A DNA stretch of 63,995 nucleotides, counting the filler, from Diploschistes diacapsis (Eukaryota), in NCBI GenBank assembly GCA_023645945.1. It is 5 parts of 5 records of this genome, joined end to end, with 100 filler letters (N's around TTAATTAATTAA, not from the genome) between each part and the next. Parts side by side here need not be neighbours in the genome. Positions count along the whole stretch, not along the records: positions 39,301 to 52,258 come from JALAIB010000700.1; 4 more parts are not named here. One strand, 5' to 3'. Both the position numbers and the translations under genes were made by a program. Position 1 is the stretch's first letter. Every line of letters starts with the position of its first letter. Under the pieces are notes generated by a model, which did not search any database, was not told the DNA's origin, and was given only the letters and a program-made list of their open reading frames with translations. Below, one piece after another: positions 13,023 to 52,358 of this stretch.

Positions 13023-13122
13023 NNNNNNNNNNNNNNNNNNNNNNNNNNNNNNNNNNNNNNNNNNNNTTAATTAATTAANNNNNNNNNNNNNNNNNNNNNN
13101 NNNNNNNNNNNNNNNNNNNNNN
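13023..13122. other. Artificial contig linker (N44-TTAATTAATTAA-N44)
   Basis: 100 nt with six-frame stop core, identical to the other three linkers. Confidence 0.99.
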
Positions 13123-16430: not shown

Positions 16431-18066
16431 ATGGCTCGATTCTTCACTTCTCTGCTAGCAGTGCTGCTGTCGGCGCTCTTACCGGCTGCTCAGGCTCAAG
16501 GAACATACGGAAGCTATAATGGCCTTGCGGTGACACCACAGATGGGATGGGTAAGCAGCCTTTACTGCCCTTGAGGCCTGCTCTGATCCAGGTTAGGACA
16601 ACTGGAACGCGTTTGGCTGCAACGTCAGCGAGACTCTCCTACTGGGCACGGCTCAAAAGATTGTAAACCTGGGATTGAAGGACCTGGGTTATAATTATAT
16701 CATTCTCGACGACTGTTGGTCTGAAGGGCGATACGAAAATGGTAGCTTGAAGCCAAACTTTAGCAAATTTCCCAATGGCATGAAACACGTGGGTGATCAG
16801 TTACATGCGTAAGAAATAACTCGTCCTCTAATTTCCATGCTTTAAGTCTGACTTACTGTAGATTGGGCCTGAAGTTCGGAATGTACAGCTCAGCGGGATT
16901 CTACACATGTGGCCGGTATGTCGCTTCGCTAGGCAATGAAAAGCAGGACGCCGAGACCTTCGCATCCTGGGGCGTGGACTACCTCAAATATGACAATTGT
17001 CTGCCCGTTTCCGCTCCTTGTCGCACTTACCTGTCTAACTTTCTCGTTAGGCTATAATGGCGGCCAAGCTGGTACCCAGCTCCTCTCCTACAACCGCTAC
17101 AACACCATGTCCATGGCCCTTAACGCAACCGGCCGTCCTATCCTCTACTCACTTTGTAACTGGGGCGAAGACTCGCCGTGGAACTGGGCCCAGACAATGG
17201 CCAACAGCTGGCGCATGTCCGGCGACGTCTACGACTCCTTCTCACGGCCCGATGTACGGTGCCCATGCACGGGCGACGAAGATAGCTACCTCTGCATCCT
17301 CCCCGGCTTCCACTGCTCCATCCTCAACATCATGAACAAGATGGCGCGCATCGTCTCCAAGTCGCAATCAGGCGCCTTCAACGACATGGACATGCTCGAG
17401 GTCGGTAACGGTGGCATGACGGACGATGAGTACAAAGTACACATGAGCATGTGGGCCCTCAACTCCAGCCCCCTGATTATCGGTACAGACATCCGTTCCA
17501 TCTCTCCGGCCTCCCTGTCCATCTATGCGAACCCGGCCGTTCTCGCCCTCAACCAGGACCCCAGCGCTGGGGCTGGCAACCGCGTCTGGCGCTATACCGT
17601 GCCGGACGTGGACGAGTACGGCCAGGGCGAAATCAGTCTGTGGACCCGCACGCTCGCCAACAGGGACCAGGTCGTCGCGCTCGTCAACGCAGGCAACAAT
17701 TCACGCGCCATGAACGCCAGCCTCGCGGACATATTCTTCGACTACGGCGCCGCGAACTCGAAGCAAGCTATGACAAACTACGATATCTACGACGTGTGGG
17801 GCTACCGTATGGAAAATGCGACCGCATCTGCCGTGTTGAACGGGACAGCACCGGCGATCGTGAATGGGAATAGCACGAGCAGGTGGAATGCGAGCGAGAC
17901 GAGCTATGCGCAGGGGATTATGATGAATGCGACGGCGCTGATGGGGAAGAAGGTTGGGACTGTGCCGGCAATGGGAACGGTGAAGGCTCAGGTGCCGAGG
18001 CATGGGATTGCGTTGTATAGATTGAGGGCGACCGGGATGGGGAATACGGGGAAGGATGAGCTATAG
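16431..18066 (+). CDS. Secreted GH27 alpha-galactosidase (melibiase type), three introns
   Basis: Signal peptide, [22 protein letters not shown], catalytic YLKYDNC, SWRMSGD and [13 protein letters not shown]. Confidence 0.95.
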
Positions 18067-26136: not shown

Positions 26137-26236
26137 NNNNNNNNNNNNNNNNNNNNNNNNNNNNNNNNNNNNNNNNNNNNTTAATTAATTAANNNNNNNN
26201 NNNNNNNNNNNNNNNNNNNNNNNNNNNNNNNNNNNN
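26137..26236. other. Artificial contig linker
   Basis: N44-TTAATTAATTAA-N44. Confidence 0.99.
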
Positions 26237-39200: not shown

Positions 39201-39300
39201 NNNNNNNNNNNNNNNNNNNNNNNNNNNNNNNNNNNNNNNNNNNNTTAATTAATTAANNNNNNNNNNNNNNNNNNNNNNNNNNNNNNNNNNNNNNNNNNNN
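39201..39300. other. Artificial contig linker
   Basis: N44-TTAATTAATTAA-N44. Confidence 0.99.
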
Positions 39301-39320
39301 TCCCACGCCCCAGGGGAAAT

Positions 39321-39322
<2 letters not shown>

Positions 39323-39359
<37 letters not shown>
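39323..39359. repeat. (AC)n microsatellite
   Basis: About 18 AC units. Confidence 0.95.
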
Positions 39360-39364
<5 letters not shown>

Positions 39365-41731
39365 GGACGGACGGAAAATGGACGCGTTGCCTTTTGGCTT
39401 GTCTTGCCTCGCTCCCATCTCTTCCCCCAACTTCTCGGCGAGACCGAGGCCGAGACCGAGATAGCGGTGGGATGCTGTGGGGGAAAAAGGGGACGGGGTG
39501 CGTGGAAGGGAGCTAGGGTTTTTTTGGGATGGTGGGGAGAGGTGGGCAAGGGTTTGGAAAAGGGATGGAGAATGGGGCGTTGAGCGAATTGAAAGGGGGA
39601 ATTGAAAAAAGAAAGGGGGGGAATCGGATGTAGCAGGGCTGCTTCCATCGCCTGATCGATAAGAAGAGGGGTGGAGGAAATTACCGGTGTTGTGTTATAT
39701 ATCGGATGCGAGTAATAGCGGGTTGATGTTTGGGGGTGTTGATGTTGAGGACTCAAGGGAGTCGATGGGGGAGAGCAGTGCGGTGTTGTCGGGTGCCGAA
39801 GAGCGCGGTGGGTTTGTTCAATGGTGTCTTTGGGGGAAGACGTTGATGATTGGTTACCGTGGCGTTCGCACGGACAGAGACGGATGGAGGCGAGGTCGGT
39901 GCTGTCGTCCAATGCTGGTTGGGCGACCCAGTATGGAAGCCCGTCGACCCGCTCGTGCTTGCGGCCGGCAGTGGTTGAACCCCGGTTGGTACACACCTCC
40001 TGTTGACTGTACCGAGGAGGGCTCGAATGCCATAGCTTGGGAGGTAAGGCTGGGCTTGGGAAGAGGCAGTCTGGGTACTTGAGCCGTCGAAGCGGCGATG
40101 AAGGGCTTGTAGAAGCAGGTAATAAGGAAGCCGTGAGGACGAAGAGACTGCTGCCGAGCACAATACGGACAGCAGCGAAGTCGTGATCTTTCCGTATTCA
40201 CGCCAGGCTGTGGCAATCAGTTGACACAGCGACTGAGCCTTCCAGAGCTGTACACGCGTCGTAGGCGGTAAGGGCCAGAGTAGAGGTATTTGAGTAAGCC
40301 ATATCGCCTGCATAACTGGTTTTGCCACCCTCAAGCCCTGACCACCTCTCTAACTCTTGCTACACCAAGGCCTTGCTCTCGAAATCGTCGTGATGTCCTT
40401 CATCGTAGGGCTCTTTGTTGTATCCTAGAAGAGTCCTTCGCCGACCGCGGTCCCTGCTCCTCCCTGTTTAGATTGGTCGGGAAAACAATGTTGATTGGTT
40501 AGGGTCGTGTCCGAATGTTGTAGTCGTCTGTAGGGATCCCAGCAAATAATGAAACATGTAAACATGCCAAAAAAACCACATTATGAAGATATAGGAAAAG
40601 TTGAAGATTGTGATGGAGCAGCTAAATGACATGACTGGTGGAGGACACGTCGAGTCCGCTGGAAGTAGCCCACAGGATGGACCTGCCCTGATACGATAAA
40701 TTTAAGGAACGTCCCGATAAGCCCTAACGAACTGCTCGAAGCTGCAGAGCCAACGCCGAAGTCACGAGAAGCTAGGAAAGAGCCACCTACGGCAAGTAAT
40801 TTCAGCTGCTGGCCCTTGACAAAGGTATAGAGATTACGACCAGAGTCCGGGAAGATAAAGCGGAAGTGCCGCGCTTCATTCCCATGTCCTCCAGAGATGA
40901 AAGTACACATCTTCGAGATTGGAAGCTGAAGTCCGCTGCTGGGATTTCCTGAAAGGGGACACGGCGGGCTCTTGGCCTCCTCCGCATCCCCAGTACCCGA
41001 GTGGTCCCAAGCAGTTGCCACATTCAAGGGAGGATGATCAACTCATTCAACAGTAGGGCATCATTTAAACCTCCAGGTTGGAAGCCCTCCTACGTTGAAT
41101 AATTGCTTCAAACTCAAACATAGGTGAGAGAATATAACGCATAGTCATGCCTTGAACTTCTTCTTTCGAGTACAAATTGCTTCGATTCCCACCTGGGACT
41201 TGGGAATTAACAAGTGAGCCAGCTCCGAGAAAGAAGCGACTTTCTTAACTCGTACTTGTCCCGAGGGTGTTTCTAGCCATCCTTTTCCCGCATCGAGAAC
41301 TGGGCTTACTCCTCAATGCAAGTTAACATCCAGCCCCTTGTCTGTTCTTGTAGAAAATTACTTGTTTTCAAGACGGGACGGCATATTGATGTGGAATAAG
41401 CTTTGGAGGATGCAAAAGAGCAAATTAGAGATGTAAGAATCAGATGAGCCTTGAAATTAGGATTGTGCTCCAGAGTATAAAATAAATGTGCAAGACAAAC
41501 CTATAAAGCAGTACAGTACTTCCATCGTCAGACATGTAGCCATACATAGGAAGGTCGGTTTGATAGGACCATTAGATGCCTCAGCCCGTAGAACAAGACG
41601 CTGCTCCAGACGACTGTAGGGTGTTTCCGGAGTTGGTTTAGTCGCCTGGAATCGTGTCGTGTGGGAAGTAGCTCGATCATAGAGCAAAGCAACGCACGGA
41701 CAGACCTGATCTCTGTTGGTGTCTCATGTTA

Positions 41732-42137
41732 GGGGCTCCGCAACAAAAGGTCGTAGATTTGGAGCGTAGATTTCAATTAACGTGATTCACCACGAAACGG
41801 AACACCCCACGAAGCGGAACACACCACGAACCGGAACACTACATATAATGTAATCAAAAAAAGGCAGAAGAACGGGGTAGTGTAGTTGAGAACAGATTTA
41901 GCTTCGTACAAATATGGAAGCGCTCGATCTAGCGCAATTACATTATAATGTAGTGTTCCGCTTCGTGGGGTGTTCCGTTTCGTGGGGAAAGACGTTACGT
42001 AGGGTTTGCTGCTGACTGCTGACAAAGCAGGTGTAGATGTCGGTGAAGTCCGAATGTTGTCGGAATAGGTAATATACAATAAAATCTATGTATTATCGGG
42101 ATCTACGCGTAGATCTTTGACGTCTGTTGCAGAGCCC
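41732..42137. mobile_element. Older MITE (PIF/Harbinger-like) hosting the Fot1-like MITE
   Basis: Imperfect TIRs GGGGCTCCGCAACAAAAGGTCGTAGAT and ATCTTTGACGTCTGTTGCAGAGCCC, with TTA at 41729-31 and 42138-40. Confidence 0.55.
41780..41995 (-). mobile_element. 216-bp Fot1/pogo-like MITE, copy 2 (inverted relative to copy 1)
   Basis: ACGT-starting TIRs, TA on both sides (41778-9, 41996-7), and about 125 bp nearly identical to the reverse complement of 25603-25725. Confidence 0.9.
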
Positions 42138-42930
42138 TTATTTTGCATAATTTCCCACACATGGTCCACGATACCTCAATTAGTAATGCAGGTTGAGGGC
42201 TAACTTAAGACGGGCGCATGCAGAGAACCGCGCAAACAAAACAAAAAACGAATGTTTAAAAGCAGCAACAAAACTCTGCGCTGCAGGGGGGGAAATTATC
42301 CGATCTGACACACAGGCTCATAGCGCATGTAATGTAATGTTTGTTAATGTGAGCAGAGCGCAGGACCTTGAAACAACGTACAGCAAAATCACCAGATTAT
42401 ATAGTATTCTGCTTGTCATCCTGTTTCGCTTATATAGCGAAAGCAACATGGTGTAAAAGTGCCAAGATCGATGCCAAGATATCCCCTTCCTTCCCTCCAC
42501 CCCACAAATGACCTCCGACTCGGAAGTAAAAGCTCCCACTACTATATCTCTGTCCCCGCTATATGCCTTTGCCTTTGCCTTTGCGTGGCTGAGGCTGAGG
42601 CTGAGTTTTTCTCGCGCATAGAAGAAGCTTCATCAATTTTTGATTTTCTATTCACATGCTATATATTTACAGCTGATTAGATAGTCTGTACAACTTGGAT
42701 GGAGCCAAGGCAACCATTCCTTCCGTATGACCCAACCTTTATGCACAAGAACCGACTCTTCCTCCCTTCACCAGTCCTATCGTAATCTCGTAAAGCTAGC
42801 ATGTATTGCCATGCTGGTTATGCCGTGGTCGGTGAGGCGGTCGCTAAATCGCAATAATATAAATCGAAAACTGGGGTATCTTCAGGAAATTCGGACCAAA
42901 TCAAGAGCGCGACGGGTTTTGCCTTTTGGG

Positions 42931-44859
42931 CTACCGCATGAACTTTCGGGCTCTTCTGGCGACTGGCTGGTGAAGGGCCGGTGTGTCGGCAACGGACAGG
43001 TCTGATGACTCCGCTCGAGCAACTCTCGCAGAGGTATCGTAGTTTAGCACACCGACCGGAATGGGGCAATCCGCCGTTGGGGCCGTGGTGTAGTTTGTCC
43101 CAGATGGGCAAGATATATCGTTGCACTCGGTCCCAAATTGTGGGCTCGGCGTCCATGTCTTGACCGTGGGCGTCTGTCCAAGCATATTGCCAGCATTATC
43201 GTATGCAACTGCGTAAGCGTAGAGGCTGAAAGGGGTTATCGCTACGGTCTCAAACGTTCCGTTGTACGCTTGCGACGCAGCCTTCACAAACACGCCCTCT
43301 TCGGATGATCCTAAGAAATAATCCCAAGAAGCGACGTCGGTTGCTCCATTCCAAGAGGCGTAGTGAGCTGCACTGCCATAGCAGCCACGCGAGTAGGAGA
43401 ATAGGGCCATTTCGGACTTGTTAGGAGTCGACTGCCATTCCCACTTGTATGCACGATAGGATTGGATGGGAAAGTCGCCGAACCGAGCATACCAAACCGG
43501 CCGGCCATCGTCGGTCACCTCGTACATGTATGGATGGCTTCCCATCCCAAGAAAATGGTTTCCGTTGGACAAAACCTGGTGACTTCCTTGGCTGCTATCA
43601 AGCTGCTTGCCAGGAGAGACGTACTGCCCGACGAGGGTAGCAGAATCGTCGCTGTTGATTCGGATCGACATTCCTGAAGATGCATTGGCGGTAGGAGCTT
43701 CGATGTCGTTGTTGCCGTTGTCCCAGATGGTAACACCACCAACGTCTTTGTTCCATCGAACATGATGTTGAAACGAGAAATTGCTATGATGTTTGTTAGA
43801 GCAGCATATGGGTATCATAGCAATGAAACTTACAGGCTTGGCGAGCCGGCTACTTGGGAATCCAATGTTTTAAAGGTGTTGCGCTTGCCTCCCATACGCC
43901 AGATGATTTCCCCTGGTGGCTTGCCAGAAGGACTGCTCAATCCAGCGATCTTGTAGAGCGTCGACACATGACGACCGGAGACGATATAATCCCCATCTTC
44001 GTCTTTGTCCACGGAGTTGATGTGGAAGAAGTCGAACCCATCTCTCCCAGTCCTGCCAGTGCCAATGAGATGCTCCCCAGGACAAACGTACGTGTCTTTA
44101 GGGTCGATATAATCGCTAGCAGACCATTGAAAAAGCTCCGTGTTCGTGCCATCTGTGGTGACTTCGGAGAACAGTCCAGTCTTGGTGAAGATGGTAGTGT
44201 TGTCGTTGCAGTGAGGGTAAGTGACGTCCTCCGGAAACGTGATGTAGCTAGTCATGAGCGCCGTTTCCCCTCCCTTAACCAAGTTGAATTCATGCAGATC
44301 CTGGGTCAAAGAAAGATTCCTCCACTTGCCCGAAGGCTTTACCTCTCGCACCTGGTTGTAACTCCGGTCGTAGATTTTGGTGCTGGAGCCTTCGTGACTT
44401 GCTCCTCCACCGCGTGCGCCTGCAAATTGCGTGTAGGCAACATGCTTGTCCCCTTCAAAATCCAAGACTTGAGGATTGAAGGCTCCGTACCCCTCTGGCA
44501 AAACGCCATGACCGCTCCAGACTATTTGCTGTATGCCATGAGCAAAGATGTCGCGTACACAGCCGGTCAAAACCTACCCCTTCGCTGTTGTATGCATACG
44601 GGCCATACTTGAAATTCGTCTTCCCAGGGCTGTTCGGCGTGAAGAAAACGTAGCCGGGAGCAGCTGCTTCGGGCTCATTTATATCTACGTAGAGCTTCGG
44701 TGCTACAATGTCCGGTCTCTGTGATATAAAAGTTAGCGATTGAGCAATGTTGAAGATGCGGATACATACGGAGAGAAACTCATAGGTCGAGACTTCTTGT
44801 GCTGAAGCAAGTGTGACTGCGGTGAGCAGCATAGCCACAATATGCTTGAGAGAGGCCAT
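42931..44859 (-). CDS. Secreted arylsulfate sulfotransferase (ASST/Arylsulfotran_2 family), three introns
   Basis: Signal peptide MASLKHIVAMLLTAVTLASA. Motifs DLHEF, FQWSA, DFFHINSVDKD, YIVSGRH, IIWRMGGK, FSFQHHVR, SQGS, YRAYK and YASWNGAT. Confidence 0.9.
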
Positions 44860-45670
44860 GCTTGTCTATTGTCAAAAGCTGGTTCTGCGACGAAGCGTGC
44901 AGAGCAGAAGGTTGAATGAATGAGGGGCACGTCGCTCACGACGTGCTAGATGCCTTCAGAAAAGTTGGAAATGAATGTCTGAAGAAAGAAAGACCAAACC
45001 AGGACGGCGTCATAGCCATATAGGGACGCCACCCTAGAGAAACGAAAGGTAGGAGATTCCAGCCAAGAGTCACTTATGTGGGGAAAAAGGAAGCCAAGAC
45101 GGAGAAGAAACGATGTGTTTAGTAGAGAACCAGTCAGGTCAGTCCTGTAGCTACAAGCGGCCAGCTGCTCCATAGATAGTAGCAATCAGCAAGATAAAAG
45201 CGGCGATCCAGCACAAGAAGGGTTAGGGGGGTCGGTAAGCAAAGACGAAGTGATCCCCTGAGGTAGGCCCATTTTGTCACCCAAGCGAGATCTTATCTCG
45301 CCAACAGCTGCATCGGTAGGCGAGCAGAGTAGTGCGTGGGCAGAATGGGCAGATAGGGGGTCAAAGGACATGAAGTTACAACGCTCATCTCATCGTTTAT
45401 GGGCAGACGAGCCTGTATTTCCTTGTTGTGTACAGAGTATGCGATTGGCTCTGAGTTGGAAATGAGCCAAGCCAGGGCTGAGCAGCGGGGTGAAGTTTCA
45501 TTATTATTATTAGGAGTGTCAGTCAGAGAGTGCCCCATAAGTAGTCCGGCTCCGGTGCGCAGGTACAACAGTGCTAGTAGGGGTAAAAAGCCTAGGTCGC
45601 GGATCAAGAAATGGTGTGGTGTGCTCGCTGATTCCCGCCCATGTGTCAAGACCCGACGCAGGTACCGGCT

Positions 45671-45720
45671 GTTAGCTGTTAGCGTTAGCGTTAGCTTGGC
45701 GTTAGCGTTACGATTAGCAT
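45671..45720. repeat. (GTTAGC)n tandem motif in the ASST-GT43 divergent intergenic region
   Basis: gttagc t gttagc gttagc gttagc ttggc gttagc gttac gattagc. Confidence 0.7.
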
Positions 45721-45911
45721 GTACTTTCTACTGTAGCGGTATGTATTTCTTTCATTACGCGTTTCAGTATGAAATCTATCATTCCTAATCCAGAGGCCCA
45801 GCACCGGAAACCTACCCACACCTCATAATTATCATATCTTCAACGCTCGCTCATTTCGTTTGTCTCTAGTCGATTTCTTTCCTGTACATACATTCTTCCC
45901 CAACAACAAGC

Positions 45912-47630
45912 ATGGAGGAGATTCTTCAGAAACGTCTGAAAGAACACGAGGCTCTTGTAAGAGTCAAGGCCACTCGTTACGATAGCTCTCCAGACATCTC
46001 GACGCCACGGAGTGTCAGTGAATGGTCTAGGCGAGCTTCATTGGACATGAAGCGCAACAGATACAACATGGACGATGGCGACGATTACTCTTTCTCGGAA
46101 TACTCAATGTATTCGGACTCGCCTTTGAAGGAGAAGATACAGGCACAGTGGGCAAACTCCCAGAAGAAGAAGAGTCGGCTAAGACCTTACATCCTTCTCG
46201 GCCTTCTAGCAGTGGGCACTGCCATTGTTTCCATCTACCTTCTCGTCGTCTCGATCCAGTCACGTCAATCAATACCGCAGTCGACTACACAGCTCATGAC
46301 CTCGAGCAATGGCCGCAAATCATACTTCTCCGAGCTGTATGCGTCAGGAGACGTACATCCCGGGCTATTCCCGCCAGAATCTACCGGGGGTCTTACAATG
46401 GATCGTTGCTCTATCTGCAATTGCAACGCGATCCCTAACAACTACGATCCCTCACCCGATTTACAATTCTCTCCCCGTGCTCGAAAGGAGGACATTTACC
46501 TAGAAGATGGTACTGTTGACATGAACGAATTTATGCGTCAAGCACTATTAGACATTTACTGTTCGCGGCAACACTTGGACAACCCGCAAGCATTCAAGCT
46601 TGCCCGCCGTACTGCCAAGAGCCTCCAAGAAATGATGTCGTGGTCCCTGGGGTCTCTGGAACTTGGGAAGCCGACTGTCTATTTAACAACAGCGACCTCC
46701 CCAAACGGGAAGGCCGAAGCGTTCCGACCTCAGTACATCCGCCGCCATGGCCGCCAAATTCGTCGGTGGTTGAAGCAGCAAGAGGAAAAGGCAAAAGCCG
46801 ATCATCCAGACTGGCAAGTCGTATGGATCATCGCGGAAGACGAAGTAGAGATCGATCCCCAACTGGTCACGACGTTAAGGAGAACCGGTGTCCCTTTTGT
46901 CTACTTCGCTTATGGACTTACTAAGACTTGGGGCAACGCGCAGAAGAACGCTGTGATGCAGGTTGCCTACGCGATGAGTCGGCCTCGGGAGCATGGTGGT
47001 ATCCTTGGTCATGGTCCTGTCTATGGTCTTGATGACGATAATAGGATGCTGCCGGAGCTGCTTGACATGCTGACTCGACTAGAACGTGTGGGAGTCCTTC
47101 CTGTTGGTAATCTAGGCGCCTATGGATTTGAATCGCCCATCGTGGACGACAGTGGCTATGTGATAGGGTCTGGATCTATATGGCAGCCAGCGACCCGCAT
47201 TTTCCCCTTCGATTTCGGCGGGTTTGCATTCAATACATCCCTACTAGGCACGGAAATTTCAGGGCCAGCATTCTGGAAGCACACCGAGTTCGCTGGCGAA
47301 TCCGAGTTCCTATCCCAGTTTGTCGCGCAATTCGGGGACTTGGAACCTTTGTGTGGCCGCAAGGTTGAGCAGAATTGCCACGCTGTGTGGCACAACGAAC
47401 CGCTGTTGGAGATGGAAAAGATGAGCGACGAGGAGGAAGTTCGGTTCATCAAAGAGCACGGCATCGAGAAGTACCAACAGACCCTCGAATCGCAGGCTCG
47501 GGAGTTTGACAGCGAGAGGGTATCGAAGTACGTACGGCCGGATGGTAAGAAACCCAGCGAGGCTTTTGAAGCCATTCCGGAAGTGACTGAGGATGGGGTG
47601 GAGATAGTATGGGTTGAGGTGCAGGCGTAA
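45912..47630 (+). CDS. Type II membrane glycosyltransferase family 43 (GlcAT-I/IRX9/IRX14-like), intronless
   Basis: Single TM (YILLGLLAVGTAIVSIYLLVV), then GT43 motifs in canonical order: VYLTTAT, WIIAED, QKNA, VYGLDDDN, FPFDFGGFAFN, ESEFL, LEPL, C..VWH. Confidence 0.85.
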   Translation: MEEILQKRLKEHEALVRVKATRYDSSPDISTPRSVSEWSRRASLDMKRNRYNMDDGDDYSFSEYSMYSDSPLKEKIQAQWANSQKKKSRLRPYILLGLLAVGTAIVSIYLLVVSIQSRQSIPQSTTQLMTSSNGRKSYFSELYASGDVHPGLFPPESTGGLTMDRCSICNCNAIPNNYDPSPDLQFSPRARKEDIYLEDGTVDMNEFMRQALLDIYCSRQHLDNPQAFKLARRTAKSLQEMMSWSLGSLELGKPTVYLTTATSPNGKAEAFRPQYIRRHGRQIRRWLKQQEEKAKADHPDWQVVWIIAEDEVEIDPQLVTTLRRTGVPFVYFAYGLTKTWGNAQKNAVMQVAYAMSRPREHGGILGHGPVYGLDDDNRMLPELLDMLTRLERVGVLPVGNLGAYGFESPIVDDSGYVIGSGSIWQPATRIFPFDFGGFAFNTSLLGTEISGPAFWKHTEFAGESEFLSQFVAQFGDLEPLCGRKVEQNCHAVWHNEPLLEMEKMSDEEEVRFIKEHGIEKYQQTLESQAREFDSERVSKYVRPDGKKPSEAFEAIPEVTEDGVEIVWVEVQA

Positions 47631-49689
47631 TGGCCTGGCTTATGACCTTTACGTGACCATGGCCTGTACATATCTGCAATTTTCTACCCGTCTATATTTG
47701 TCAATACGTTGCATAGCAGCCGTCGAGATATACCGGCTTCGGCGTTTCCCAAAGGGACTTGATGTTAATCGATATATATTCTAATATCTCTAAAAGATAA
47801 TGCTGTGCAAACAACCTCAACCCCATCCTCAAAGGTTATTTAACCGCGTATATTTTTATGTCAATCGCTGTAGGAGAACTTCTCCAGCCATAGCGAGAGG
47901 ACAAATCTCTGCATGTATATTCAAGGCGCACCGTTGTCCTTTATACACAGCTTTGTTTTTCTAGTTCGTGACACGCCATCTTACTTGGTTATGGCGAATT
48001 TGCCCTAGCCTCCACTTTACCACACTTTTCCCGCATCAGGAACATTCAACAATCACGCCATCTGATATCACTACCGCCTTTGGGTTCGAAGATTCAGTCG
48101 AGCATGATGTTTCAAAAGGTAAATGATCCCTCTCATGTGTTCAAACATCACGGCTAAACCTACAAGACTGCTGCTACATTCTGAATGATTTGCTTCTTCT
48201 CCGGGGTGTTCTACAACGGATAAAACAGGGTGTTGTCAGCGATAGAACATCATGGGACCAGGACAATCAGGGCTCAGGGGGGAGAGATCGGGGAGCGAAA
48301 AAGTGGGCACTCCATAACTGATTCTAGAACCTTTTCTTTATCTGGCTTTGTTTTGCTCCGCTGCCGATGAATCTTGTGACTGTCCTATCTGCGGCGTGGC
48401 GTCGTCGAAGTCATCGATGTACTGAATTCGCCAGGGAGCGAATGATAACAGGTTACTGCCAATAGCATCTTTCGACATGGCGAAGAAGCGAGATTACGCC
48501 AAGAACTCGTGTCCCGCAAAAACGAATCCAATCACTTATAGGGCCTCGGAAACCTACAACTATCATTGTCACTAAAGCAGACACTCGGAGCACTACTACG
48601 CACTACTACTACGCAATTGTAATTACAATCACAAGGCAAGCTCAACACAGGAACTATCTGGAGCTTCAAGGTCCGCTCGGAGCATGACCACCAGACGGGC
48701 CGTCAGTCTGCTTATCGGCGGTGGCCGTTCGTGAAAAGAATCACAAGCAACGAACGGACTTTCCTATGGGATCGACTTCTGGCCTGTTCTACTTTACTTC
48801 TCGACATACGTTCGGGTGGTCTGGAATGAGAATGAATACAAGCCGTATGGGTCTGAAGACAAAGCTTGAAGTCCAAACAACGGGGGATCTGAAAGGGGAC
48901 GAAGCAAACGTACTTTTGAGCTGCTGTAACCCCCAGTCGTCTCAGACGTGTTTGGTATGGTAATCTATACAAGTAGGTTTTATTACACACGGGGCGTACA
49001 CGTACACGAGGATCCGAGATCCCTTTCGGCTCTCTTACTTACTTGGCTGGCGTCTTCCGTTCATCTTGGGTCAGCAGCAGCCCCTTGCAGTAGTACCATC
49101 TTCCACTGCGCGTTTTATCTGCGGTACATTCCCGTTGTCCCAAATCTAAAAGTCCGCCGAGTTTATCAGAATCATACTCCTGGCTGATTCGGGGATCACC
49201 ATGGCTGCCAACCCCTACAATAGGCTACAAATTCATGCAATTGGCTGCTACGCTCGGTAATACAGAACTCTCTCGTAGCAGCGGTCGACACTCTGCTTTG
49301 ACCGGGCCTGGAGAGAGCCCTGCCATTCGACTATGGCCTAATCTGCCCAACCTCCAACTGCTGTGCTTTTCTGCCCGGTCAGTATGATGTATAGTTTGTG
49401 TTTGATTGTCATCCCACCCGCTAGTCACAAGAATCCGACCTGCTAAAAGAGCAAGCCCGCCGAGACAGTCGTGCAGACAGCCGTGCTTGATGGGAACTAC
49501 TACTACCATTTGCTTGTGATATCTTTATCCAGAGCCTCTGCCCAGCCTACTTGGCATTTTTTGGTCACCTCTTCTCTACTTTCTTCATAGCACCACGACG
49601 CAAGCTGGGCTTCTTTTCGTTCTCTTGAACATATTTCCAGCTTCCTTTTACCTCCTGTCATTCATTACTCCTCATTTTCATAGCACATC

Positions 49690-51831
49690 ATGATTGCCCT
49701 ACCACATAGACGGGTCGCGCTCCCGGTCACGCTTGTTATCGTTCTTACCATCATCCTCGCCGCCTCTCTCCCAAGTTCATCGCACATCAGCTTTCGTAGA
49801 CTACAAACAGCATCAAGCTCAAGTAGAGCAACAGCAGCAGCAGCAGATCTTGAGGCAACGGCCAAAAGCAGAACCTCGGACCCAAAAGCTGTCGAGCCAT
49901 TGTTCAAAGCAACTTACGACCAGATCCTCGCCTCAGCTGCGCAAAAGCCATTAGCTAGGGACCCGTGCGTTGATTTGGTTGTTTCGGACGGTGGGAACCG
50001 CGCAAAGAGGGCAAAGGGCACGAAGGTCCTTGTTACGGGTGGAGCTGGTTTCATTGGGTCCAACTTGGTCGACCGGCTCCTGGACTTGGGATACTCGGTC
50101 CGCATCTTCGACAACCTGTACACTGGATACATCCGCAATGTTCCTCTCGACAACCCAAATGTGGAGCTCATTGTCGGTGATATCCTCGATAAAGAAATGC
50201 TTGCCAAGGCAGTGGAAGGAGTCGAATATGTATATCACTTGGCTGCCATGAGCAAGGTGGTTCCTTCCGTTAAATCTTCCGATATGGCTCGATTCTGTAC
50301 CGAGTCCAACGCCTTGGGGTCGTGGAACGTCCTCGACGCCGTTCGCAAGCAAGGCAGCATCAAGAAGGTCGTGTACGCAGCTTCGTCGACGTACTATGGC
50401 AACCAGCCTGCGCCTCAGACCGAAGACATGGCTCCGGACTTCTTGACTCCATATGCTGCCAGCAAATATGAAGGCGAGATCCAAATGCAGATGTTCGATC
50501 GCCTCTTCAGTGTCAATACCATCTCCACTCGCTTTTTCATGGTCTACGGTCCCCGTCAACCCAGTACCGGCGCATACGCCATCGTGACCGGAGTCTTCGC
50601 CAAGCAAGCTGCTGACGGAAAGCCATTGACCATTGAGGGAGATGGCAGCCACTACCGCGATTTCATCCATGTCTCCGATATCGTCGAGGGTCTGATCCTA
50701 TCTCAGCAAACCAAGGAGCTCCACGGAGATGTTATCAACCTTGGCTCAGGAACTGCCTATTCGGTCCAGGACGTGGCAAATCTTGTCTCCGGCAATCAGG
50801 TCCACGTCGATGCGAGGGCCAACGATCTCGAAGGAACCTTGGCCAACACTTGCAAGATGAGGAAGGCGATTAACTACCAGACCAAGAAAGACTTCAAGAC
50901 TGAGATGAGCTACATGGCCAAGGAGACGATGGCTGGAAACGTCTTTGCTCAATCGTGGCTCGACGCTGCTCGTGCTCTTTCCGCTCCCCACCTTCTCCCG
51001 GCTGGCTCGCCCCTTTTCCAATGGCCAAGGGATACCTCGGACTGGGATGCTCTCGTCTTTGCAATCAAGCGTGTTTCGGAGGAGGCGGGCGCCAGCAGCA
51101 GCGATGTCGGCCGTCGCATGAGCTTGATCATGTTCTCCATGACCGACGACGACACCGACAATGCGGCGAACATTCTCCTCAACACGGTTTTCTCCCTGGT
51201 CAGGTTCGGCGACGTCAAGGCATACATGGTTGGTGCCATGGACGACTCCGCACTGGATATCTGCACGACTCTCAACCTGCCGTGCTACGACGCTCGTGCG
51301 ACTACTGCAGCCGCCGTCATGTCGAGCCTTGTGTCCAGCGGCTTCGATGTGCATCTCGCCCAAGCCGGCAACTCTTACTACAACGCCATTGAATCCGAGT
51401 TCACGAAGGAGACCAGCAACGCCGACATCGCAGCTGCGAAGCCTTCCGGAGACATCTTCATCCGCTCCACGGACAAGACCAAGGCCGCTCTCAGCAAATG
51501 GGCCGAGTCGGCAGCCGAACGGGACTCGAAATTTAACCTCGGCAGCGAGATCTACAGCGCCGACAAGTGGCCTCAGCTCTCGGTCACCAAGAACAACTTC
51601 GTCGTTGAATGTACGGTCGCGCCATCCTTGAGCTGCGGAAAAGGGTTCTACGCATCTGCCAGCTGCAACAAGGCGGAGAGCTTGAACGCCACGATTTCAA
51701 CGCTCAAGGCTGCCAACGCATGGCATCTTTCGGACTGCCACGACCTCGCGCACTGCGACAGGCAGCAAATCGTGCCGCTGAGATGGGCCAGCTGGACGCC
51801 GGACTTGGCCGCAACGGGAGGCATTTGCTAA
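49690..51831 (+). CDS. Signal-anchored NAD-dependent NDP-sugar epimerase (extended SDR) fused to a C-terminal nucleotide-diphospho-sugar transferase (GT77)-like domain, intronless
   Basis: N-terminal hydrophobic helix; VLVTGGAGFIGS, YAASS, PYAASK, RFFMVYGPRQ, GDGSHYRDFIHVSD. C-terminal LLNTVFSL..G..YMVGAMDD.A...C..LNLPCY..LVSSGFDVHL resembles the GT77 start; that part is less certain. Confidence 0.85.
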   Translation: MIALPHRRVALPVTLVIVLTIILAASLPSSSHISFRRLQTASSSSRATAAAADLEATAKSRTSDPKAVEPLFKATYDQILASAAQKPLARDPCVDLVVSDGGNRAKRAKGTKVLVTGGAGFIGSNLVDRLLDLGYSVRIFDNLYTGYIRNVPLDNPNVELIVGDILDKEMLAKAVEGVEYVYHLAAMSKVVPSVKSSDMARFCTESNALGSWNVLDAVRKQGSIKKVVYAASSTYYGNQPAPQTEDMAPDFLTPYAASKYEGEIQMQMFDRLFSVNTISTRFFMVYGPRQPSTGAYAIVTGVFAKQAADGKPLTIEGDGSHYRDFIHVSDIVEGLILSQQTKELHGDVINLGSGTAYSVQDVANLVSGNQVHVDARANDLEGTLANTCKMRKAINYQTKKDFKTEMSYMAKETMAGNVFAQSWLDAARALSAPHLLPAGSPLFQWPRDTSDWDALVFAIKRVSEEAGASSSDVGRRMSLIMFSMTDDDTDNAANILLNTVFSLVRFGDVKAYMVGAMDDSALDICTTLNLPCYDARATTAAAVMSSLVSSGFDVHLAQAGNSYYNAIESEFTKETSNADIAAAKPSGDIFIRSTDKTKAALSKWAESAAERDSKFNLGSEIYSADKWPQLSVTKNNFVVECTVAPSLSCGKGFYASASCNKAESLNATISTLKAANAWHLSDCHDLAHCDRQQIVPLRWASWTPDLAATGGIC

Positions 51832-52258
51832 GGTAGGCAGGCCTCAGGATACGATGACGATGACGCGCGCGCGGTGCGGATTTGTATATATACCCTAACA
51901 CATATTTACACAACACGTTCGCTGCATATATTCTTGGACAGTTCTTTTGCATGGCATAGGCATAGGCGGCGTTCTTTTTTTCCCTTTTTTTTTTTTTTTG
52001 GATATCATTGGTGTCGAGACCGGGGGACTGACCTGCCTTTACTCAAACGTTAACAAAACAATATAAAATATTTGAAAAACTACTTCTGATCCTCCGTAGA
52101 GCTATTGTAGAGCTATTGTACTTGCGACGATCTCTTTCAACCCAGAGCCCCTCTCCACCAATCTCAGAGTCATCCTCAGCAGATGACTTGGCCGTGTACA
52201 CTGTCCAACAATGGATGGCAGCTACTGGACATTCGCTTGCTTGCCAGGGTGGGGGGGG

Positions 52259-52358
52259 NNNNNNNNNNNNNNNNNNNNNNNNNNNNNNNNNNNNNNNNNN
52301 NNTTAATTAATTAANNNNNNNNNNNNNNNNNNNNNNNNNNNNNNNNNNNNNNNNNNNN
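52259..52358. other. Artificial contig linker
   Basis: N44-TTAATTAATTAA-N44. Confidence 0.99.

Follow-up and report, generated by a model that had tools for sequence, protein, structure and literature searches.

In the animal HNK-1 pathway, glucuronic acid (GlcA) is added by an enzyme of glycosyltransferase family 43 (GT43) and is then sulfated, which is the animal form of the glycan-sulfation idea taken up here. Fungal gene clusters for exopolysaccharides are already known: as far as the available text of two sources describes it, the galactosaminogalactan (GAG) cluster of Aspergillus fumigatus has five genes (PMC4817252) and combines a UDP-sugar 4-epimerase, a glycosyltransferase and glycoside hydrolases (PMC4817252, PMC8224951). 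In bacteria, the accessible part of a preprint presents PelX as a group 3 UDP-GlcNAc C4-epimerase that provides UDP-GalNAc for an exopolysaccharide synthase (bioRxiv 10.1101/2020.05.26.111013). For the lichen matrix, the passages available from one source report acidic polysaccharides by histology, never characterised and termed a black box, and state that Lecanoromycete genomes can make GlcA, with no polymer using it known (PMC8355462). Here we describe three genes on one contig of a 63,995-nt window (the whole stretch of DNA analysed, made of joined contigs of Diploschistes diacapsis, assembly GCA_023645945.1), which encode a GT43 protein, a fusion of a predicted extended short-chain dehydrogenase/reductase (SDR) NDP-sugar 4-epimerase with a GT-A-fold domain, and a candidate arylsulfate sulfotransferase (ASST). 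On balance, we think it probable that these are three genes of a conserved four-gene secretory cluster for the assembly and trimming of an acidic glycan or glycoconjugate, which most likely bears beta-glucuronide. That the GT43 and SDR fusion genes form a functional unit is, in our view, very likely.

The GT43 protein matches PF03360 in Pfam at 80.9 bits (cut-off 27; E 1.5e-22), and hydropathy places a single hydrophobic span behind a 90-aa N-terminal tail. Its DDD motif, Glu463 and His494 align with the motifs of GlcAT-I, GlcAT-P and GlcAT-S (D194-196, E281 and H308); His494, the counterpart of GlcAT-I His308, is near-invariant in 52 sequences, and a conserved Asp within an F-D-x-G-G-F stretch aligns with Asp252 of the human glucuronyltransferases. 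In GlcAT-I, His308 and Arg277 bear on the use of UDP-GlcA as donor, Arg277 as a specificity determinant. The 52-sequence alignment also shows a conserved Cys-rich luminal region of 170 aa that separates the membrane span from the catalytic domain, in which C166, C169, C171 and C217 are invariant and for which no Pfam family was matched. Family precedent would make the protein a beta-glycosyltransferase of the inverting type, and most likely one that transfers glucuronic acid. The available portion of a 2015 survey reports fungal GT43 from Pucciniomycotina only (PMC4449007); we found GT43 in four ascomycete classes, with the same partner gene in each. The GT43 orthologues of Lambiella and eight Xylographa (P0134, P0227-P0234) are labelled 'RNA polymerase II subunit A C-terminal domain phosphatase', which looks like an annotation error, and in one of them, P0229, Pfam shows GT43 alone.

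The partner is the SDR fusion, which is covered 100% by full-length homologues of 706-766 aa. In its SDR half, the GxxGxxG motif and the Ser/Tyr/Lys residues are invariant across 36 sequences (G117, G118, G120, G123, S232/S233, Y255 and K259). The best solved relative is PelX (6WJB, E 4.7e-54, 187 bits over 288 residues; also 6WJ9, E 5e-54), while UDP-Glc(NAc) 4-epimerases score 124-141 bits, the UDP-GlcA 4-epimerase 6ZL6 118 bits, solved UDP-GlcA decarboxylases 97-98 bits and dTDP-glucose dehydratases at most 93 bits. Judged by these scores, the SDR domain reads as a 4-epimerase, nearer to 4-epimerases than to decarboxylases or dehydratases. One homologue is named UDP-xylose synthase, and we rejected that function for this domain on the 97-98 bits of the decarboxylases versus 187 for PelX. 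The same SDR is joined to TPT/EamA transporter-like domains in a chytrid and in protist transcriptomes and to GT8 in one protein (P0086, P0096, P0098, P0101, P0116), and relatives fuse it also with GT8 or GT77 domains. Such fusions with nucleotide-sugar-transporter-like and glycosyltransferase domains fit a luminal logic of import, conversion and transfer.

The C-terminal domain of the fusion was modelled with AlphaFold2 at a pLDDT (predicted local distance difference test score) of 91.3 and is predicted to adopt a GT-A fold. With VIA-align, the model matches the retaining GT8 enzymes glycogenin (Z 10.8, root-mean-square deviation 4.1 over 191 residues) and Gat1 (6MW8; Z 10.7, deviation 4.1 over 190 residues), many nucleotidyltransferases lying within one Z unit of these best matches, and the top Foldseek match is a GT8 protein (E 6e-4). 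By BLASTP, the domain aligns to the true PF03407 proteins P0086 (E 2e-15) and P0072 (E 6e-13), which are SDR fusions of Gaertneriomyces and Allomyces, and PF03407 occurs in 25 of its 30 named matches in the Atlas. Plant RGXT and RRA and Dictyostelium AgtA are examples of GT77/PF03407. The window's GT-A domain is invariant at Cys103, Asn107, Pro109 and Cys227 and near-invariant at His133, Tyr141 and Asp157.

The two genes stay together well beyond this genome. Homologues were called to the same contig partly by equal contig size, a proxy, and partly by consecutive GenBank accessions. On the first basis, 22 of the 55 non-self GT43 homologues are on a contig equal in size to one with an SDR-fusion homologue, and 14 of those contigs are no longer than 45 kb. 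On the second, the GT43 and fusion accessions are consecutive in four of four genomes (Lambiella insularis, Agyrium rufum, Elsinoe fawcettii and Pseudovirgaria hyperparasitica) and also in four Xylographa species, so that the pair is adjacent in Lecanoromycetes and Dothideomycetes. A metagenome scan with the GT43 profile returned four loci, none with ASST or GH79; one of them, contig L002, holds both genes 2.2 kb apart and divergent instead of tandem, so the linkage of the pair has outlasted a rearrangement. Moreover, the chytrid protein P0062 aligns in the same order along the full length of the fusion (45% identity, E 3e-176) and, further on, to the GT43 catalytic domain (32%, E 1e-32), giving the order SDR, DxD-less GT-A and GT43 in one chain. 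The sequence-only reading had made its proposal depend on co-location of orthologues elsewhere, and such co-location is what these genomes show.

The third gene, ASST, is interrupted by three GT..AG introns of 51, 49 and 50 nt, and its homologues align across all exons. Its Pfam matches (Table 1) compare with cut-offs of 27 bits for PF14269 and 24.2 bits for PF05935. All 32 sequences aligned carry FHIN, SxRH and QH without change, and these motifs correspond to positions 356, 358, 374 and 435-436 of E. coli AssT (3ELQ); as listed in the available passages of a 2026 review, the AssT active site includes His356, Asn358, Arg374 and the transiently sulfated His436 (PMC13426309). From this alignment, ASST appears to keep a complete active site of the type that works independently of 3'-phosphoadenosine-5'-phosphosulfate (PAPS). 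A family profile of 32 relatives finds the solved 'Sulfotransferase' entries 9KF4/9KF6 at E 2e-129 over 466 positions and E. coli AssT at E 3e-4. The same passages state that arylsulfate sulfotransferases (ASTs) are able to use alcohols and sugars as sulfate acceptors in vitro and that the AST-type Cpz4 prefers a sugar hydroxyl (PMC13426309). Given this bacterial precedent, the adjacency of the genes and the intact active site, sulfation of a glycan by ASST is possible. The orthologues P0180, P0182, P0184 and P0220 carry C-terminal Ser/Thr/Pro/Lys-rich repetitive tails of 200-300 aa that resemble mucins or wall proteins; these tails, seen in the ASST orthologues of Xylographa, Lambiella and Agyrium (Ostropomycetidae), suggest a wall or extracellular site rather than the Golgi lumen. 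The window ASST and its close relatives have no such tail and end in a short basic motif.

Among 35 matches, ASST orthologues (at least 49% identity to exon 3) were found in Lecanoromycetes only. In the lecanoromycete genomes with both genes, GT43 and ASST have consecutive accessions in 10 of 10 (Lambiella, Agyrium and eight Xylographa), and three further contigs of 20318, 12889 and 6828 nt support the linkage. A quick tree of the fusion protein puts the window in a well-supported clade of eight, apart from an Ostropomycetidae clade, and ASST linkage is present in both. On the far side of the fusion, relatives carry a GH79 gene. In Xylographa pallens it is adjacent and encodes an N-terminal membrane anchor, in Agyrium its accession (MCJ1307952) is consecutive with that of the fusion (MCJ1307951), and in X. 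bjoerkii it is two numbers before GT43. The 1280-aa model P0212 of Xylographa vitiligo (MMC15_000258) runs the SDR-GT-A fusion and the adjacent GH79 together and is probably a merged gene model, not a true fusion. To survey the linkage, the library was searched with the Xylographa protein and the ten top representatives were looked up: four are co-located with the pair (Agyrium and, by equal size, contigs of 19165, 39131 and 31640 nt), and of the remaining six, four lie on megabase scaffolds of other classes and two on contigs whose size matches none. A cluster member of the GH79 on the 31640-nt contig lies on a 33563-nt contig, again equal in size to a pair-holding one, and two of the GH79 contigs belong to the window's own fusion clade (~80% identity). 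The best solved relative of this GH79 is a 4-O-alpha-L-rhamnosyl-beta-D-glucuronidase (7DFQ, E 6e-12). A gene of a beta-glucuronidase family beside one of a glucuronyltransferase family is the strongest hint to the product, and it lends independent support to the uronic acid that the sequence-only reading had guessed at.

What the sequence and its relatives show directly are the gene models, the domains with their catalytic motifs, the topology signals and the conserved neighbourhood; the sugars, the acceptor, the sequence of reactions and a sulfation step are inferred in what follows. The core would be an ancient pair anchored in the Golgi or endoplasmic reticulum membrane with its catalytic parts in the lumen. 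There, GT43, with its intact DDD and catalytic Glu, would transfer a sugar, most likely a glucuronyl residue, and the 4-epimerase domain would invert C4 of a UDP-sugar brought into the lumen, a sugar of the UDP-GlcNAc type if the domain's nearest relative is a guide. The GT-A domain may attach the epimer by way of a non-canonical site, or it may assist GT43 without catalysing a reaction itself. In Lecanoromycetes, the pair would be accompanied by a membrane-anchored GH79 and a secreted ASST, and the latter may act extracellularly, taking sulfate from an aryl sulfate and placing it on the completed glycan.

A number of observations weigh against this scheme, some touching ASST and GH79 and others the chemistry of the pair. 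The linkage of ASST and GH79 was seen within one class, Lecanoromycetes, and inherited gene order is a live explanation for it. Among the 35 ASST matches, there is no orthologue for the pair-holding Elsinoe, Pseudovirgaria, Exophiala and Xylariales sp. PMI_506. On the metagenome contigs L002 and L004, which are 79% identical at the DNA level and represent one lineage, the neighbour of GT43 is a GH51-type gene, not ASST. A tblastn search of the window found no GH79 with any of seven queries (six relatives of that family plus the merged SDR-GH79 model of X. vitiligo); in relatives, the gene sits beyond the fusion, where the contig studied here ends 427 nt after the fusion stop codon. In the available passages of the 2026 review, moreover, hardly any AST has a natural aryl sulfate donor assigned to it, and the characterised ASTs act mainly on phenols (PMC13426309). 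It is thus possible, if on the unlikely side, that only GT43 and the SDR fusion cooperate, while ASST and perhaps GH79 are neighbours by inherited order and ASST is an extracellular shuffler of phenolic or xenobiotic sulfate, unrelated to the glycan. This reading is favoured by the phenols on which characterised ASTs mainly act, by the finding of ASST beside the pair in Lecanoromycetes only, by the pair's occurrence without ASST in Dothideomycetes and on L002, and by the Ser/Thr/Pro/Lys-rich tails of the orthologues, which place them outside the Golgi lumen. It fits poorly with the GT43/ASST adjacency in 10 of 10 genomes and in both deep clades of the fusion tree, with the sulfation of a sugar hydroxyl by Cpz4 (PMC13426309, in the same passages) and with the gene on the other flank: GH79 is also carbohydrate-active and matches GT43 chemistry, so the block looks functionally coherent. 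We keep the four-gene cluster as the preferred reading. The single luminal module proposed by the sequence-only reading holds insofar as orthologues are co-located in many genomes. The glycan-sulfating role that it gave to ASST is plausible, but the linkage was seen in Lecanoromycetes only, and the tails of orthologues point to an extracellular site, not a luminal one.

Within the pair, the GT-A domain is open to another interpretation. In the window it scores 21.2 bits against PF03407, under the cut-off of 22, and no stretch passes alone, whereas the homologous domains of P0072, P0086 and P0080 pass at 57-76 bits. Of the 49 aligned GT-A rows, 7 have a canonical DxD; neither P0062 nor any ascomycete row is among them, and the named carriers are early-diverging fungi. 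The window has A-Q-A-G where PF03407 relatives have T/S-D-x-D (D-T-D in P0072, D-A-D in P0086). The earlier label 'GT77-like' therefore agrees with the fold and the relatives but misses the curated Pfam threshold and the DxD motif, and a transfer of the epimerised sugar by this domain would have to proceed without the canonical DxD. Either the domain transfers sugar in a non-canonical way, or it acts as a partner with no catalysis of its own. A further reading, which we find rather doubtful, makes it a non-catalytic remnant, with the epimerase feeding GT43 as the sole transferase (e.g., UDP-GalA from UDP-GlcA, or UDP-L-Ara from UDP-Xyl). The GT43-linked clade (all ascomycete rows and P0062) is exactly the DxD-less one, no GT43 domain is seen in paralogues that retain the DxD (e.g., P0086 and P0072), and P0062 runs from SDR through a DxD-less GT-A to GT43 in a single chain. 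Against this reading stand the strong conservation at Cys103, Asn107, Pro109 and Cys227, the confidently predicted fold, the existence of metal-independent GT-A enzymes and the nearest solved relatives of the SDR, which are UDP-N-acetylhexosamine epimerases, with the UDP-GlcA epimerase 6ZL6 at 118 bits versus 187 for PelX. For the SDR itself, no NCBIfam equivalog cut-off is reached (GalE 129 vs 262, TviC 123 vs 760). In alignments to animal GT43s, Arg277 of GlcAT-I has no clear counterpart in GT43, where the loop is shorter. The chytrid P0062 could be a merged gene model, like P0212; whether a true fusion or a merged model, it places the pair together in Chytridiomycota. That three unrelated secretory enzymes came together by chance, with no functional cluster, is hardly credible: all linkage evidence is comparative, but the pair is linked across fungal classes, in another orientation on L002 and joined in the chytrid gene model, which already contradicts a chance grouping for GT43 and the SDR fusion.

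Table 1. Positions of the cluster genes and associated features; coordinates refer to the window unless a metagenome contig is named
Feature	Position	Strand	Size or residues	Details
Contig with the three genes	39301-52258		12,958 nt	Flanked by synthetic joiners 39201-39300 and 52259-52358
(CA)n microsatellite	39310-39345			Start of contig
Stretch without recognisable gene	39301-42930		3.6 kb	ORFs (open reading frames) without Pfam match at E<=0.1
ASST gene	ATG 44859, stop 42931	-	592 aa (spliced product)	Four exons; one terminal stop
ASST exon 1	44770-44859	-	30 codons	ATG; signal-peptide-like N-terminus
ASST exon 2	44578-44718	-	47 codons	P0182 and P0184 align (tblastn)
ASST exon 3	43834-44528	-		First half of domain; PF14269 69.3 bits, PF05935 31.8 bits
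FFHIN, ASST exon 3	44030-44016	-		Counterparts of E. coli AssT His356, Asn358
SGRH, ASST exon 3	43979-43968	-		Counterpart of E. coli AssT Arg374
ASST exon 4	42931-43783	-		Second half of domain, C-terminal beta-sandwich-like part, stop; PF14269 46.1 bits
FQHH, ASST exon 4	43773-43762	-		Counterpart of sulfo-histidine His436
ASST/GT43 divergent intergenic region	44860-45911		1052 bp	ORFs without Pfam match
GT43 gene	45912-47630	+	572 aa	Single exon/ORF; type II membrane topology
GT43 hydrophobic span	46185-46262		aa 92-117	
GT43 Cys-rich region	Listed at 45912-46700		aa 135-300	
GT43 DDD	47031-47039		aa 374-376	Invariant in 52 sequences
GT43 catalytic-base Glu463	47298-47300		aa 463	Near-invariant in 52 sequences
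GT43-fusion spacer	47631-49689		2059 bp	No recognisable gene; ORFs without Pfam match
SDR-GT-A fusion gene	49690-51831	+	713 aa	Single exon/ORF; type II membrane
Fusion N-terminal signal anchor	49699-49794	+	within aa 4-35	Single hydrophobic span
Extended-SDR NDP-sugar 4-epimerase domain (predicted)	50026-50955	+		PF01370 165 bits; NAD motif TGGAGFIGS
C-terminal GT-A-fold domain (predicted)	50956-51828	+	last 291 residues	GT77/PF03407-related; Cys-rich
GH51-type gene (PF06964, alpha-L-arabinofuranosidase C-terminal)	L002 5864-6955; L004 850-1872	-		Convergent to GT43

In the window, ASST and GT43 are divergent, and the fusion follows GT43 in tandem (Table 1); the region between the first two is presumably their shared promoter region. 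Of the other ORFs on the contig, 17 of 17 tested gave no Pfam match at E<=0.1. The sequence-only reading had placed three genes at these positions, with a divergent ASST and GT43 about 1 kb apart and the fusion in tandem, had called them the only recognisable genes on the contig and had assigned all three to the secretory pathway; gene models, Pfam matches and distances agree with the arrangement, and predicted signals agree with the targeting (hydrophobic spans in GT43 and the fusion, a signal-peptide-like start in ASST). The window is interrupted by spacers of the form N44 + TTAATTAATTAA + N44, where TTAATTAATTAA is a 12-mer, at 13023-13122, 26137-26236, 39201-39300 and 52259-52358. These carry stops in all six frames and bound pieces of 13022, 13014, 12964, 12958 and at least 11637 nt, in descending order. 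The size of the fourth piece, which holds the three genes, agrees with the 12,958-nt contig recorded for the window proteins P0001 and P0121. The window is thus made of separate contigs, and genes on different pieces are not neighbours. Housekeeping genes (PRP3, RNA polymerase I, RPN1 and others) were accordingly rejected as cluster neighbours, as they lie on other contigs of the chained window. A GH27 alpha-galactosidase fragment (PF16499, PF17801) at 16933-18066 on the plus strand lies among such housekeeping genes, on an unrelated contig of the assembly.

The library of papers searched contained no report of an ascomycete GT43 cluster or of a function for fungal PF14269. This agrees with the statement of the sequence-only reading that no such ascomycete pathway had been described, and we did not find this GT43-based cluster described. 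Cluster finders keyed to polyketide synthases (PKS) or nonribosomal peptide synthetases (NRPS) would miss such a locus. The cluster is a concrete candidate for the missing acidic-polysaccharide chemistry of lichens, and since the core pair also occurs in the culturable, genetically tractable Exophiala and Elsinoe, it is testable there. If ASST acts on a glycan, this would be PAPS-independent glycan sulfation in a eukaryote, and a wall-tethered ASST sulfating with aryl sulfates, if true, would be a route of glycan sulfation not known in any eukaryote. In its most specific form, which we offer as speculation and consider improbable, lichen-forming ascomycetes would make a sulfated, glycosaminoglycan-like matrix polymer or epitope whose GlcA-beta-1,3-Gal(NAc)-type unit would resemble that of chondroitin or HNK-1, built by GT43 and the epimerase-GT-A fusion, trimmed by GH79 and sulfated without PAPS by the wall-tethered ASST from aryl sulfates (e.g., sulfated lichen phenolics).

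Among described systems, the animal GT43 enzymes (GlcAT-I/B3GAT3, GlcAT-P and GlcAT-S) share with the window GT43 the PF03360 domain, type II topology, the DDD motif, the catalytic Glu and counterparts of Asp252 and His308. The window protein differs from them in reaching only E ~1e-11 to 1e-12 against the solved animal enzymes, in its fungal 170-aa Cys-rich luminal region and in having no clear Arg277. Unlike the sulfation step of HNK-1, the candidate ASST would be PAPS-independent, and it is unrelated to CHST10. It resembles AssT (3ELQ), Cpz4 and 9KF4/9KF6 in its PF14269/PF05935 matches and conserved active-site counterparts, but it is eukaryotic, has a predicted signal peptide and, in relatives, a mucin-like tail, and is very distant from AssT.

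For the fusion, the comparison with PelX and WbpP rests on PelX being the best solved relative of the fungal SDR domain; PelX is soluble, stand-alone and bacterial, whereas the fungal domain is membrane-tethered, fused and below equivalog thresholds. The GT-A domain is linked to GT77/PF03407 by its predicted fold and by sequence to true PF03407 domains, but it is set apart by a score below the curated cut-off and by Q-A-G replacing DxD. The GAG cluster (uge3, gtb3, agd3, sph3 and ega3) is likewise a fungal glycan cluster without PKS or NRPS that brings together an epimerase, a glycosyltransferase and hydrolases. Its enzyme families are entirely different, and the lichen cluster has no deacetylase and instead has GH79 and ASST. 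Finally, while Uge3 of the GAG cluster is presumably cytosolic, the epimerase of the lichen cluster is predicted to be membrane-anchored, luminal and fused to a GT-A domain.

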